From Candidatus Abawacabacteria bacterium (GTDB lineage: Bacteria > Patescibacteriota > Gracilibacteria > RBG-16-42-10): a stretch of 64,000 nt of DNA. The notes under the pieces were generated by a model. That model searched no databases. It was not told the DNA's origin and saw nothing but the letters and a program-made list of their open reading frames with translations. Made by a program: the position numbers and the translations under genes. This document shows, in pieces, positions 1 to 43,998 of the stretch (the first letter of the stretch is position 1; the number at the start of each line of letters is the position of its first letter). The stretch lies in NCBI GenBank assembly GCA_016207805.1, contig JACQZO010000020.1, positions 35,634-99,633 of the forward strand. The letters are read 5' to 3'.

Positions 1-2
1 TT

Positions 3-635
3 TGCTTGCACACTTGGAATAATATTCGGGATTTAGAATATTGTATTTATACTGCTGGCTCTAGCAATTGCTTCGGTTGTATAGGATTGAAGCGTAAGGA
101 ATATTGCATTCTCAATAAACAATATAGTAAGGAAGAATACTTCGATCTAACTGCGAAAATAAGAGAGCATATGAGAAAAAACAATACATATGGTGAGTTT
201 TTTCCACCCAGCATGAGCTATTGTCATTACAACGAATCCGAAGGAATGACTTATTGTCCCCTAACCAGAGAAGAAGCCTCAGCTCGAGGCTTTTCTTGGG
301 CAGAAGAAAAACTTACAGTGCCGCCTACTCACTCTGATTTACCTGACAACATTGCACAAGCCACTGATGAAGTCTTAACAAAGGCACATGCATGTATAAA
401 AACCGGTAAACCATATCGCTTAATCAAACAAGAATTAGATACCTATCGTGAGCGCAAAATTCCTCTACCACAAGTAGCACCCTTAGAAAGAATCAAAGAA
501 AAGCTATACCGCAATAAAATACTGCCTTTGAAGAATATTCAATGTTGTAAGTGTGGAATAAGTTTAACTAGCGTGCATAATCCAGCAGAAGAATTAGTTT
601 ATTGCGAGCAGTGTTTTGAGAATAGCCTGAGCTGA
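3..635 (+). CDS. Cys-rich zinc-ribbon-bookended family, array member 1 (5' end outside window)
   Basis: Open from the window edge in frame 3. Has the late family block FGCIGLKRKEYCILNKQYSKEEYF and YGEFFP. C-module: ACIKTGKPYRLIKQEL..VAPLERIK (C1 site degenerate) and QCCKCG..VYCEQCF (C2 intact). Closest to members 4 and 9. Confidence 0.85.
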   Translation, partial: CLHTWNNIRDLEYCIYTAGSSNCFGCIGLKRKEYCILNKQYSKEEYFDLTAKIREHMRKNNTYGEFFPPSMSYCHYNESEGMTYCPLTREEASARGFSWAEEKLTVPPTHSDLPDNIAQATDEVLTKAHACIKTGKPYRLIKQELDTYRERKIPLPQVAPLERIKEKLYRNKILPLKNIQCCKCGISLTSVHNPAEELVYCEQCFENSLS

Positions 636-984
636 AATCTCCCCCCTTCATCTTGAGATGAAAGTTTAAAAGCTAGAATCTAAAATCTAAATTAAAGCGG
701 CGAGTATCGAAAGACCTTCCAGCATATAGTTGGAAGTGTTATGAATATTCAATCAAAGAAGCTGGCTTACTTGCTTTCGTCAAAGCACATTATTTACCGA
801 GACCAGAAACGGCAGGATCCTTCCCATCGATAACACTCGGGGCAGGCACCTGCGCTGCGCTTTGTTTAGGATGAAAAGCAGGTAGATAAATGACGAACAT
901 CGGGACAAGCCTCAAAGAATTCTTGTTACTTCTAATAAATACATATACTCTTCTTCCGTCTCTAAATTCGTAACTTGGAATTTT

Positions 985-42205: not shown

Positions 42206-42247
42206 TCCCTGTCTTCGTTTTGGTCTTTGTCTTCGTCTTTTATGATC
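42206..42247. repeat. inverted-repeat arm B of four-helix-bundle cassette 2
   Basis: tccctgtcttcgttttggtctttgtcttcgtcttttatgatc, near-perfect complement of 41754-41795. Confidence 0.85.
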
Positions 42248-42315
42248 TTCCTTCCCCCTCCCTACCGACTTTCTCATTTCTATTGTATCTTATGCTCAAT
42301 TGATCAAGCTTCCTC

Positions 42316-43998
42316 ATGCCCACTTCACTAACCTGCACCCTCTGCCACTCTGCATTCGCACTTTCTGACACTGAAATCGCTTTTTTGGATCGCCTCAGTC
42401 CTATCATTGCCAATCAAAAATTCCCGCTACCCAATCCTACGCAATGCCCTAATTGTCGTCTCATTGGTCGTGTCATCAATCGTAATGAACAATTCCTTTA
42501 CAACACTAAATCTGCCCAATCAGGAAAAGATATTATTGCTTTATATTCTGCTGATTCACCAGCCAGTAATCGCTTCAAAGTGTATACGCAGGAGGAATGG
42601 TGGGAAGAAAGTATGGACCCCTTGAGCTATGGACGTGAGTACGATTTTTCTCGGCCCTTTTTTGCTCAATATGCTGATTTACATTTATCTGTCCCCAAAC
42701 CTGCGCTAAACCAAGTAAGTAATGAAAATTCACCATATACGACTGGTACTGGCTACTGTAAGAATTGTCATCTAATTAATTCTTCTGAATACTGTCAGGA
42801 TTGCTATTACGGCAAATTAATTCAAAGCTCGCGAGATATCATGGATAGTTGCTATATTTACGACTCTGAACTGTGTTACCAATGTTTCTATCTGACTAAA
42901 TGTTATGGCTGTAATTATACGTATTACAGTCAAAATTGCACTGAATGTTATTTTTCAGATAATCTCAAAGGCTGTAAGAATTGCTTTCTCTGTACCAACC
43001 TTGATAACAAACAGTATTATTTCCTCAATGAACCTTTAGAAAAAGATGCTTACATAGCAAAAGTTCACGAATTCTTGGGCTCAAAAGAGAATATTACTAA
43101 AGCATTAGCCTTATTTACTGATCTTAGAAAAAAGCGAATATATAAATATGCTAATATTACCAATTGTGAATCATCCACCGGAGATTTCTTAACAAATTGT
43201 CAGAACTGTATTGATTGTTATGACACTAATGACAGCCAAGACTGTCAGCATGTCATAGTAGGCGTAGAAATCAAAGATGTTATGGATTGCAGTAATGTTT
43301 ATGTGAAGCCGGAACTGAATTATCAAGTGATGGGAGCTTTAAATACCTATCAAGTACTTTTTGGTATTTATGTCTTTAATTCTCAAAATATTTTGTATAG
43401 CCAGTTTTGCTACAATTCTAATAATCTTTTTGGCTGTAATGGCATGAAAAAAAATGAATATTGTATTCTCAATAAACAGTATTCTAAATCTGAGTATGAA
43501 GCATTGGTCCCGAAGATTATTGCTCACATGAAAAGTACTCAAGAATGGGGTGAGTTTTTCCCACCAACCCTATCCCCATTTTCCTACAATGAAACAGTAG
43601 CCAATGAATATTTACCTTTAACTCAAGAAGCAGCACAAAAAAGAGGCTATAGCTGGAAAGAAAAAAATCAGAAAGATTATCAACCTCAAAACTATCATGT
43701 TCCAAGCAAAATCAGTGAGGTGAAAGATGATATCCTCCAAGCTATTTTAGCCTGCAGCACTTGTGGCAAAAACTATCGCATTTTGCCCCAAGAGCTACGA
43801 AAGTTGAGAGACACGAATTTTCCTATTCCCGAAAAGTGTCCTGACTGTCGCCACAGCGAACGCATGAGCTTGCGCAATCCTCGCAAATTATATGAGCGTC
43901 AGTGCAGCAATTGTTCACTATCAATTATCAGTCCTTTTGCTCCTACTAGAGAAGAAAAGGTTTATTGTGAACAATGCTATTTACAAAATGTATTATAA
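42316..43998 (+). CDS. Cys-rich family, array member 20 (N1+ N2- C1+ C2+), last copy in window
   Basis: 560 aa. CTLCHS..CPNCRLIGR, with N2 fully lost (NTKSAQSGKDIIALY). C-module CSTCGKNYRILPQEL..CPDCRHSER..QCSNC..VYCEQCY. Core family blocks retained (FDFSRPFF, NEYCILNKQYSKSEYE, QEWGEFFP). Confidence 0.9.
   Translation: MPTSLTCTLCHSAFALSDTEIAFLDRLSPIIANQKFPLPNPTQCPNCRLIGRVINRNEQFLYNTKSAQSGKDIIALYSADSPASNRFKVYTQEEWWEESMDPLSYGREYDFSRPFFAQYADLHLSVPKPALNQVSNENSPYTTGTGYCKNCHLINSSEYCQDCYYGKLIQSSRDIMDSCYIYDSELCYQCFYLTKCYGCNYTYYSQNCTECYFSDNLKGCKNCFLCTNLDNKQYYFLNEPLEKDAYIAKVHEFLGSKENITKALALFTDLRKKRIYKYANITNCESSTGDFLTNCQNCIDCYDTNDSQDCQHVIVGVEIKDVMDCSNVYVKPELNYQVMGALNTYQVLFGIYVFNSQNILYSQFCYNSNNLFGCNGMKKNEYCILNKQYSKSEYEALVPKIIAHMKSTQEWGEFFPPTLSPFSYNETVANEYLPLTQEAAQKRGYSWKEKNQKDYQPQNYHVPSKISEVKDDILQAILACSTCGKNYRILPQELRKLRDTNFPIPEKCPDCRHSERMSLRNPRKLYERQCSNCSLSIISPFAPTREEKVYCEQCYLQNVL

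Follow-up and report, generated by a model that had tools for sequence, protein, structure and literature searches.

Genomes in the Candidate Phyla Radiation (CPR, or Patescibacteria) are about 1 Mb in size and normally shed paralogs, and the locus described here raises the question of why one of them still spends at least 32 kb on twenty copies of one gene family. The locus lies on a 174.7-kb contig of a metagenome-assembled genome (MAG) of Candidatus Abawacabacteria, to which NCBI taxonomy gives a candidate phylum of its own within the Bacteria candidate phyla, and was analysed as a stretch of 64,000 nucleotides (nt), here called the window. The family, denoted F in this article, had been noticed in a first reading of the DNA made without database searches (the sequence-only reading), where it was described as a tandem array of intact, deeply diverged paralogs of a cysteine-rich protein. 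The follow-up analysis addressed the age and distribution of the array, the architecture of the proteins, the role of their cysteines and the genes that accompany them.

Layout, distribution and age of the array

Twenty open reading frames (ORFs) on the plus strand make up the family in the window, 19 of them complete (535-575 aa) and one cut at the window edge (6..635). The ORF list contains exactly these genes, and all 20 copies align end to end with few gaps in MAFFT, at pairwise identities of 28-61% (mean 39%). They cover 32,484 nt in total, which is 73.8% of the first 43,998 nt (given as about three quarters in the sequence-only reading), and the 19 complete copies are all intact as it had claimed. 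The motifs quoted there were all found in the family consensus, and the one said to be present twice per protein, KxYCILNKQYSKEEYE, was seen twice in each. The complete copies contain 31-47 Cys (5.6-8.8%) and the truncated copy 12 Cys in 209 aa; the earlier count of 42 Cys in the 551 aa of ORF 29274-30929 is correct. The statement that every copy begins with CxxC was right for 17 of the 19, while ORFs 7280 and 18730 (named by their first position) lack the second Cys and its partner pair, the site being lost. Eight of the genes form an uninterrupted run (24091-37856) with spacers of 24-74 nt, or up to 96 nt if ORF 32736 begins at the ATG at 32769, in agreement with the 24-96 nt first reported. 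The copies are listed below; N1, N2, C1 and C2 are the terminal four-cysteine (Cys4) sites discussed in the next section, and L numbers denote related loci.

1..635, plus strand: F copy 1, C-terminal part; the aligned part starts with the second solenoid and includes the C-terminal zinc module; 329 aa or more in L077
985..2661, plus strand: F copy 2; 558 aa, 40 Cys; has all four Cys4 sites; shares 54% identity with copy 13
4689..6371, plus strand: F copy 3; 560 aa, 42 Cys; site C1 degenerate
7280..8932, plus strand: F copy 4; 550 aa, 32 Cys; divergent subtype without N1, N2 and C1; 49% identical to copy 9
10113..11810, plus strand: F copy 5; 565 aa; shares 61% identity with copy 6 (latest duplication in the window)
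11811..13517, plus strand: F copy 6; 568 aa from TTG; likely start ATG 11820
13580..15307, plus strand: F copy 7; 575 aa; 28-residue acidic/basic insert after the second solenoid
15365..17071, plus strand: F copy 8; 568 aa
18730..20388, plus strand: F copy 9; 552 aa; divergent subtype shared with copy 4; closest relative in L001 (50%)
21346..22953, plus strand: F copy 10; 535 aa, 47 Cys
24091..25743, plus strand: F copy 11, first of the 8-gene run; 550 aa; ortholog in L023
25818..27488, plus strand: F copy 12, the reference copy; 556 aa; sites N1, C1 and C2; identical to NCBI HY817_04230
27548..29233, plus strand: F copy 13; 561 aa
29274..30929, plus strand: F copy 14; 551 aa, 42 Cys; ortholog in L001; subfamily spans Abawacabacteria and Peribacteraceae
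30993..32672, plus strand: F copy 15; 559 aa
32736..34436, plus strand: F copy 16; 566 aa from TTG; likely start ATG 32769
34497..36161, plus strand: F copy 17; 554 aa; L001 ortholog 57% identical
36186..37856, plus strand: F copy 18, last of the 8-gene run; 556 aa; L001 ortholog 64% identical
39241..40908, plus strand: F copy 19; 555 aa; identical to NCBI HY817_04275; subfamily of 10 members in several genomes
42316..43998, plus strand: F copy 20; 560 aa; ortholog in Peregrinibacteria locus L056

An exhaustive profile search over 1.84 billion representatives at 50% identity recovered 2,520 proteins with the threshold set at E <= 1e-30 and 4,145 with a threshold of E <= 1e-10. Nearly all of the top 150 are full-length matches of 527-601 aa, with two longer fusions among them. 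The latter, P0268 (731 aa) and P0233 (808 aa), contain the full F architecture joined in one case to an N-terminal GNAT domain and in the other to an unassigned C-terminal extension of ~250 aa, and they could be gene-calling artefacts. The named sources of the family are Abawacabacteria, Peregrinibacteria, Peribacteria, Gracilibacteria and MAGs labelled 'Patescibacteria group'. At least two copies are found in 54 of 76 related loci, nearly all on the same strand, with as many as 11 packed into 22 kb. F genes are thus usually organised in tandem arrays, which are no peculiarity of the source genome.

That the array might instead be an assembly artefact or a set of decaying neutral copies can be practically dismissed. 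The copies are too diverged for assembler collapse or chimeras, all complete ones are intact with nonsynonymous divergence (dN) well below the saturated synonymous divergence (dS), and equivalent arrays occur at those 54 other loci. In addition, the Logan assembly of run SRR12113407, made with a second, independent assembler, reproduces 12.7 kb exactly (window positions 1-12661, 0 mismatches). The Logan contig adds 356 nt upstream, which lengthen copy 1 to at least 329 aa and make it a genuine member of the family; a homolog search with the truncated copy 1 did not recover its full-length parent.

The sequence-only reading had also held the array to be old and kept by selection, without recent amplification, and comparison with other genomes bears this out. 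For 11 of the 20 copies the closest sampled relative lies in another genome. Copy 29274 is 71% identical to its ortholog in L001, from another member of Abawacabacteria, vs 44% to its best paralog in the window; for copy 24091 the values are 54% (L023, a Peribacteria chromosome) vs 41%, and for copy 42316 they are 59% (L056) vs 41%. For comparison, the window's RpoD shares 61% identity with a Peribacteria RpoD, which is close to the 54-59% of the cross-phylum F orthologs. A set of 385 sequences falls into 130 clusters at 50% identity, and several window copies belong to clusters that span candidate classes or phyla. Younger duplications are represented by the pairs 10113/11811 (61%), 985/27548 (54%), 4689/15365 (51%) and 7280/18730 (49%). 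In 8 of 8 pairs tested, closest orthologs included, dS is saturated and dN amounts to 0.23-0.45; no dN/dS ratio is given because dS was saturated in every pair. The cross-genome orthologs together with saturated dS and low dN therefore argue that the paralogs are ancient, non-redundant and strongly constrained. Judged by these comparisons, the array is neither a recent amplification nor a fast-diversifying repertoire and appears to be held under strong purifying selection. Accordingly, the earlier suggestion of a diversified recognition repertoire is retained in so far as paralog diversity is anciently fixed, and given up as regards rapid diversification.

Zinc modules, solenoids and the role of the cysteines

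The architecture of F is fixed in every copy and can be written Z-L-S-S'-L'-Z', where both the zinc module Z and the solenoid S are internally duplicated. Z is a basic module with two Cys4 elements, one of the Pfam zf_Tbcl type and one a CxxC-x17-CxxC ribbon. These duplications were detected by profile-profile comparison with hhalign (385 homologs), from which the architecture is therefore derived: Z matches Z' with 99.8% probability (E = 6.6e-30) and S matches S' with 99.9% probability (E = 1e-34), control comparisons being negative. In the reference copy 12 the boundaries are aa 1-90 for Z1, 141-250 for S1, 271-400 for S2 and 472-556 for Z2. The AlphaFold2 model of this copy, built with 50 sequences, has a predicted local distance difference test score (pLDDT) of 85.4 and a predicted template modelling score (pTM) of 0.83. 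It begins with the N-terminal zinc module, continues with helices and two beta-solenoid segments, each closed by a strand-helix cap with the motif KxYCILNxQYSKEEYE, and ends with a conserved aromatic segment and the C-terminal zinc module. Beta-bridges of the model recur every 3 and 12 residues, and Cys frequency autocorrelates at 3, 9 and 12 residues. The model points to S as a thin beta-solenoid of ~12 residues per coil with four three-residue sides whose inward position is held by Cys; in the predicted solenoid core, ladders formed by Cys, Ser and small aliphatic side chains provide the packing.

The ends of the protein differ in charge from the rest, with means of +4.9 for Z, +5.7 for Z' and about -17 for the remainder (whole-protein pI 5.6-6.5); the solenoids are mildly acidic and the zinc modules strongly basic. 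As the sequence-only reading had stated, the copies have neither a signal peptide nor a transmembrane-like segment (maximum Kyte-Doolittle 1.44 over 19 residues), and their sequences strongly support soluble, cytoplasmic proteins. The solenoids are the most variable part between subfamilies (entropy 2.2-2.4 bits) and within subfamilies are as conserved as the rest, the within/between entropy ratio being 0.40 for solenoids vs 0.5-0.6 elsewhere. This pattern is expected if the solenoid surfaces carry subfamily-specific specificity.

The roles put forward in the sequence-only reading included a multi-zinc or metal-binding solenoid. Conservation and covariation over 385 homologs separate two classes of cysteines, and the zinc part of that suggestion applies to the first of them. 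Four terminal Cys quartets are recognised: N1 (residues 5/8/42/45), N2 (64/67/85/88), C1 (476/479/504/507) and C2 (526/529/547/550). The C2 quartet is essentially invariant (96-99% conserved), and the N1 residues C5, C8, C42 and C45 are 88-95% conserved, with a phi coefficient of 0.87 for the pair 8/45. N2 and C1 are kept or lost all-or-none (phi 0.98-1.0 for 67/85/88 and 0.99 for 479/507); among the 19 complete window copies N2 is complete in 8 and C1 in 13. Such all-or-none behaviour is the pattern expected of structural Zn(Cys)4 sites. One to four structural zinc sites per protein, located in two homologous basic end modules, are thus predicted with strong support from the alignment.

The solenoid cysteines behave differently. 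Their positions are occupied by Cys in 27-93% of homologs, most of them in only 27-65%, and the replacements are mainly Ser, then Val, Leu, Ile and Ala; they hardly covary (phi <= 0.36, except 0.58 for 214/217). Since they exchange without covariation they are read as core packing and not as obligate ligands, and the multi-zinc solenoid idea is weakened to that extent. A broader version, in which metal ions in chains, or clusters of the Fe-S type, are bound by the Cys-lined solenoids and the family stores metal or sulfur, buffers redox state or transfers electrons, could draw on a Cys content of 5.6-8.8%, on up to four inward-facing Cys per 12-residue coil, and on the conserved rung C211-x2-C214-x2-C217-x2-C220 (80-93% Cys), which includes the covarying pair. 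It is nevertheless very improbable: ligand-set covariation of the kind displayed by the terminal zinc sites of the same proteins is missing, most positions tolerate Ser, Val, Leu or Ala, none of the Pfam models for ferredoxins or other metal clusters is matched (there is no Fer4 match, and the only rung of this type is CxxCxxCxxC and not the ferredoxin-type CxxCxxCxxxCP), and a set of dozens of paralogs that diverged anciently and differ in surface from subfamily to subfamily is more than storage or buffering would require.

The claim that F belongs to no characterised family was upheld for the central ~380 residues, which match no model of Pfam, NCBIfam or PADLOC, and has to be amended for the termini, where known zinc-finger domains match. 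The Pfam domain zf_Tbcl (PF13451) covers residues ~2-50 and scores 32.1 and 32.6 bits in ORFs 29274 and 21346 (cutoff 24), which is membership at the domain level only; it matches 18 of 50 family members at E <= 1 (alignment A1). The models zf_Tbcl_2 and TIGR04272 cover residues ~520-555, and the spacing C526-x2-C529-x17-C547-x2-C550 is exactly their CxxC-x17-CxxC. Scores are 15.5-27.1 bits for zf_Tbcl_2 (PF23477, cutoff 27) and at most 27.4 for TIGR04272 (cutoff 36), and a match of the zf_Tbcl_2 type is present in 40 of the 50 members at E <= 1. In PHROGs, the central residues of one copy gave a single weak match (E 0.0005) to a family of unknown function. Two F members and the interspersed ORFs scanned had no match among PADLOC defence models, and a recurrent weak match to Med15_N/KIX at the cap motif was judged to be chance.

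Structure searches, which together with profile searches had been put forward as a check, placed F in no fold or family that would assign a function. With the full model, Foldseek returned no PDB match at E < 0.06, the best being left-handed beta-helix enzymes with a template modelling (TM) score below 0.2; against BFVD only small phage zinc-ribbon proteins matched, locally and with high probability, none of them at E < 0.02. A model of the central domain only retrieved generic solenoids from the PDB (Qnr/MfpA, tailspikes; E > 0.3). In a PDB profile search the only similarity was LIM-like and confined to the last ~30 residues (CRP1, CRP2 and MLP; E = 0.002-0.09). No publication on the F family was found in the literature; Cys-rich proteins of Ca. 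Peribacter riflensis are described there, but these are large (580-3860 aa) and secreted and differ from F.

Several characterised systems share single features with F. The N-terminal zinc domain is shared with zf_Tbcl, and the C-terminal one matches zf_Tbcl_2 and TIGR04272 at or near threshold; however, these are small stand-alone or repeated zinc domains, whereas in F two composite modules of ~85 residues bracket ~380 residues without a model. LIM proteins such as CRP1, CRP2 and MLP also carry two sequential Cys-rich zinc fingers, but LIM is a eukaryotic protein-interaction module with another spacing and C2HC/C4 ligands in place of the all-Cys sites of F, and Pfam LIM matches only 5 of 50 members, below threshold (best E = 0.0033). 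The antifreeze protein of Tenebrio molitor (TmAFP, PDB 1EZG) shares the 12-residue coil and the Cys that point into a very narrow core, and is the only PDB sequence match other than zinc fingers, at a non-significant E of 8.8. TmAFP is secreted and disulfide-bonded and has a TCT ice-binding face, while F lacks a signal peptide and the TCT motif and has Cys positions at which Ser or an aliphatic residue can stand instead.

Pentapeptide-repeat proteins (Qnr, MfpA), left-handed beta-helix acyltransferases and gamma-carbonic anhydrases are cytoplasmic beta-solenoids like F; two of them, Qnr and MfpA, are rod-shaped and acidic and function by binding a protein partner. The F repeat of 3/12 residues differs from the pentapeptide (5/20) and hexapeptide (6/18) repeats, with no match to Pfam Pentapeptide or Hexapep; Foldseek gave E = 0.34 and TM = 0.10 for EfsQnr, and a best E of 0.061 with TM <= 0.2 for left-handed beta-helix proteins. 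With regard to gene organisation, tandem paralogs are also known from the solenoid-repeat expansions of symbionts (ankyrin, leucine-rich repeat and F-box proteins of Chlamydiae, Rickettsiales and Legionella) and from the KRAB-ZNF clusters of animals. F resembles these in having many tandem paralogs of one binding architecture with variable surfaces on a repeat scaffold, and is unlike them in its fixed length and repeat number, its own regulator, its conservation across candidate phyla and its lack of fast evolution. At the domain level the ends of F belong to the zf_Tbcl-type zinc fingers; its centre is like thin beta-solenoids in general and recalls the quadrilateral rods of pentapeptide-repeat proteins, but fails the defining features of the solenoid families named. 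F is therefore classed as an expanded family of solenoid binding proteins.

Between the modules, the junction motifs WWSDxWD...DFDFSRPFF, ENSxYxN, GEWGEFFP and SPFxYNE are kept family-wide. They suggest another explanation, according to which F proteins are enzymes of an unknown class, the junctions forming the active site and the solenoids selecting substrates. The motifs are indeed common to all subfamilies, and near-invariant acidic or polar residues occur outside the zinc sites (D92, D104, N132, D171, D304, D319, E405, N420). On the other hand, a conserved nucleophile pattern of His, Ser or Cys cannot be made out, neither profile nor fold matches any enzyme, and several of the invariant Asn and Asp residues lie at solenoid turns or caps, where they are typically structural, so an enzymatic function appears rather improbable.

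Regulation, a neighbouring ATPase and the proposed function

Clustering of all non-family ORFs in 77 regions (the 76 related loci and the window) identified TrmB-like regulators as the dominant neighbours of F. Homologs of the TrmB-like protein of the window are present in 39 of the 77 regions, and one array often contains several; the typical arrangement is a regulator gene on the minus strand followed by successive F genes on the plus strand. The features of the window that bear on regulation are the following.

23940..23957, no strand: operator-like palindrome TGTAAAA-AACT-TTCTACA, 134 nt upstream of the copy 11 ATG
24034..24061, plus strand: TTTACA-16-TATACT with TG, the region's best match to a sigma-70-like promoter; 10/12 positions; a consensus match only
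38343..39101, minus strand: TrmB-like winged-helix regulator, 252 aa, divergent from copy 19; Pfam TrmB PF01978, E = 1.9e-13
39108..39126, no strand: degenerate palindrome abutting the regulator start codon; right half-site TTCTACA intact, 3 mismatches to the consensus

The helix-turn-helix domain of ORF 38343-39101 scores 50.5 bits with PF01978 (cutoff 25.6); its C-terminal 170 residues match no model, the NCBIfam models TrmB and TrmBL1 are far below cutoff, and a PDB sequence search gave no match. Directly upstream of TrmB-like genes, a palindrome with the consensus GTTGTAGAA-N4-TTCTACA is found across genomes, and its two half-sites vary together (TGTTCTT...AAGAACA, TGTGCA...TGCACA, TTGTCTA...TAGACA). 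The form TGT-x4-spacer-x4-ACA is present in 22 of 54 regulator-upstream 80-mers vs 1% of random windows, an enrichment of ~40-fold, and in other loci lies mostly 100-155 nt upstream of the ATG of the next family gene; a generic inverted-repeat test near the regulator was uninformative, since its control reached 49%. Both the association of the regulator with F and the conserved palindrome are new findings.

In the window, the palindrome at 23939-23957 is the only match to the consensus TTGTARAA-N4-TTCTACA with at most two mismatches on either strand of the 64 kb; it heads the 8-gene run and is followed by the promoter-like match at 24034-24061. No terminator-like site was found in the spacers of this run, and promoter-like matches inside it are no commoner than in shuffled sequence. 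These observations support, without proving, that the runs are co-regulated and probably co-transcribed, and give the co-transcription suggested by the sequence-only reading an indirect backing. Two groups of ORFs considered as further regulators were rejected: the small minus-strand ORFs upstream of the run are not a decayed TrmB gene and encode SRPBCC and VOC proteins, and ORFs 40918-41670 and 20504-21247 have no similarity to the regulator.

A second recurrent neighbour is a 747-aa ATPase of the VirD4/TraD/HerA type, present in 18 of the 76 related loci. It matches Pfam T4SS-DNA_transf, TrwB_AAD_bind and DUF87, and below cutoff the NCBIfam models TraD, CD1115 and CedD; its best PADLOC match is mad8 (E = 3.7e-15), followed by HerA models. 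Most commonly (9 loci) it lies 12-135 nt downstream of an F gene on the same strand, and in other loci an F gene starts 23-274 nt downstream of the ATPase, so that in three loci it is embedded in the array. The linkage of the ATPase to F arrays elsewhere is a new finding, and it may be functional or reflect conserved synteny. A dedicated F subfamily beside the ATPase was considered and rejected, as the adjacent genes belong to 13 different clusters with a mean identity of 0.39 vs 0.42 for random pairs.

The linkage raises the possibility that F proteins are cargo (effectors) or substrate adaptors of an orphan VirD4/TraD-like coupling ATPase, exported by a type IV-like route to act on or in a host, in the manner of the ankyrin-repeat effector families of intracellular bacteria. 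In addition to the synteny, the lineage is thought to be symbiotic and the C-terminal module is Arg-rich. A survey of Patescibacteria counted 5,713 homologs of type IV coupling proteins (T4CP), most of them encoded far from virB4, and found the T4CP gene not essential in one cultured Saccharibacterium; its authors raised the possibility of exaptation (PMC12102498). Such a role is still considered unlikely. The ATPase is absent from the 64-kb window, no other gene of a type IV secretion system was found beside it in the loci examined, and the diversity of the adjacent F genes fits synteny as well. Moreover, rigid zinc-stabilised proteins are poor substrates for unfolding-dependent export, the C-terminus is a folded ribbon without a disordered tail, and conservation near that of RpoD is atypical of effectors. 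A related and more far-reaching proposal is likewise doubtful: that F constitutes a hitherto unrecognised class of modular recognition proteins in prokaryotes, zinc-clamped and built on a 'tripeptide-sided' Cys-ladder solenoid, and that its dozens of anciently fixed paralogs make up an essential repertoire of the Peregrinibacteria/Gracilibacteria lineage functionally coupled to the VirD4-like ATPase; if true, F could for example be the long-sought cargo or adaptor set of the type IV-like machinery by which Patescibacteria interact with host cells.

The same neighbourhood is relevant to the view that the arrays are intracellular conflict or immunity sensors against phages or mobile elements, each paralog recognising one invader protein. 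This would fit the diversity of paralogs at one locus, the ParE/Phd toxin-antitoxin pair within the array of the window, the ORF6N/antirepressor-like genes within arrays elsewhere and the mad8 match of the ATPase. F itself, however, has no PADLOC or PHROGs defence match and no effector domain, and its arrays are syntenic, lineage-wide and conserved almost like housekeeping genes, whereas defence islands are usually patchy and turn over fast. A sensor function of this kind is hence decidedly improbable.

The explanation preferred here, with a probability of about 0.4, is that the array is a chromosomal multigene array of CPR-lineage-specific, soluble cytoplasmic proteins that act as non-enzymatic adaptors or recognition proteins. 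The constant basic zinc modules would serve for docking to a shared polyanionic partner, nucleic acid being the likeliest, the solenoid surface of each subfamily would bind a different conserved macromolecular target, and the TrmB-like regulator would switch expression of the gene runs through the palindrome.

Several points weigh against this adaptor model. No homolog or structural analog of F has a known function, and the functional reading is therefore inferred from the architecture only. Nucleic-acid binding by Z is a proposal, and LIM-like tandem zinc fingers often bind proteins instead. The strongly conserved junction motifs could equally mark the active site of an enzyme, and the palindrome could be an RNA hairpin instead of an operator. 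Model quality is poor in the N-terminal half of solenoid 1 (pLDDT 58-67); the central-domain-only model, which is poorer (pLDDT 71.9) and differs in solenoid 1, was not relied on. Finally, the VirD4/TraD-like neighbour in other genomes is unexplained by the model.

The size of the family (at least 2,520 clusters) and the near-RpoD conservation of some of its orthologs imply an important, lineage-defining function, with the caveat that the function of F is inferential and that uncharacterised families are common in CPR genomes. The family offers several experimental handles, namely four predicted zinc sites (two of them optional), a solenoid predicted to have a 12-residue Cys ladder and without an analog in the PDB, a TrmB-like regulator cognate to the family, together with its palindrome, and the recurrent VirD4/TraD-like neighbour.

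Other features of the window and of related loci

The genes interspersed among the F copies encode a Cys-free 632-aa protein, a DUF4328 membrane protein, the ParE/Phd pair, the SRPBCC and VOC proteins, two four-helix proteins of the 23S rRNA-intervening sequence type and the TrmB-like regulator. Between 44 and 64 kb the window consists of ordinary chromosomal DNA (NUDIX, ABC-F, Ogt, nitroreductase, DnaG, RpoD, phosphoglucomutase, HolB, MutS and MutL genes). Some of these genes deserve separate mention.

2724-4622, plus strand: no Pfam, NCBIfam or PADLOC match
8954-9253, minus strand, and 9250-9561, minus strand: ParE-type toxin and Phd/YefM-type antitoxin pair (Pfam), inside the F array
17157-18488, minus strand: no match, as for 2724-4622
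20504-21247, plus strand: no match, as for 2724-4622
37961-38311, plus strand, and 41796-42149, minus strand: two paralogous 23S rRNA-intervening sequence proteins (PF05635) that flank the regulator/copy 19 region
40918-41670, minus strand: no match, as for 2724-4622
45233-46318, minus strand: no match, as for 2724-4622
53468-55351, plus strand: RpoD and adenylate-kinase domains in one ORF

The five unmatched ORFs had no PHROGs match either where scanned, and among them the 632-aa protein contains zero Cys although it is encoded between two F genes of ~7% Cys. In related loci, genes of ~183 aa on the opposite strand, assigned as ORF6N/KilA-N-like (antirepressor-type) by their sequence motif, lie in the F arrays of L055, L065 and L072, and also in L001, L052 and L054. 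The ORF at 53468-55351 contains sigma-70 regions 1.1-4 (residues 17-375), a linker of ~30 residues and a complete adenylate-kinase domain (413-592), with no stop codon between them, and the Peribacteria RpoD homolog covers the sigma part only; it represents either a true fusion of sigma factor and adenylate kinase or an adk gene expressed from an internal start.

Short tandem runs of 7-nt units are scattered over the window. There are 24 such arrays of ~4-5 copies each, with a unit that differs between spacers, and 22 of them fall within non-coding DNA, which makes up 9% of the window; in shuffled sequences the number was 0-1. Examples are found at 15311-15342, 21238-21271, 27514-27544, 29238-29271, 30928-30959, 32681-32758, 34439-34469, 37857-37885 and 38311-38343, and also at 47026-47103, 48614-48644, 49530-49561, 56916-56947, 57041-57072, 60884-60909 and 62662-62741. 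The runs directly follow stop codons or stand just before start codons, in the housekeeping part and in the F array alike. They recall the heptanucleotide short tandemly repeated repetitive (STRR) sequences of heterocystous cyanobacteria. Some, together with an inverted copy, form strong predicted hairpins (dG -29 to -34 kcal/mol, z -4 to -7) and others are unfolded, and a run of the TAATTCG type is also present in the Peregrinibacteria locus L022.

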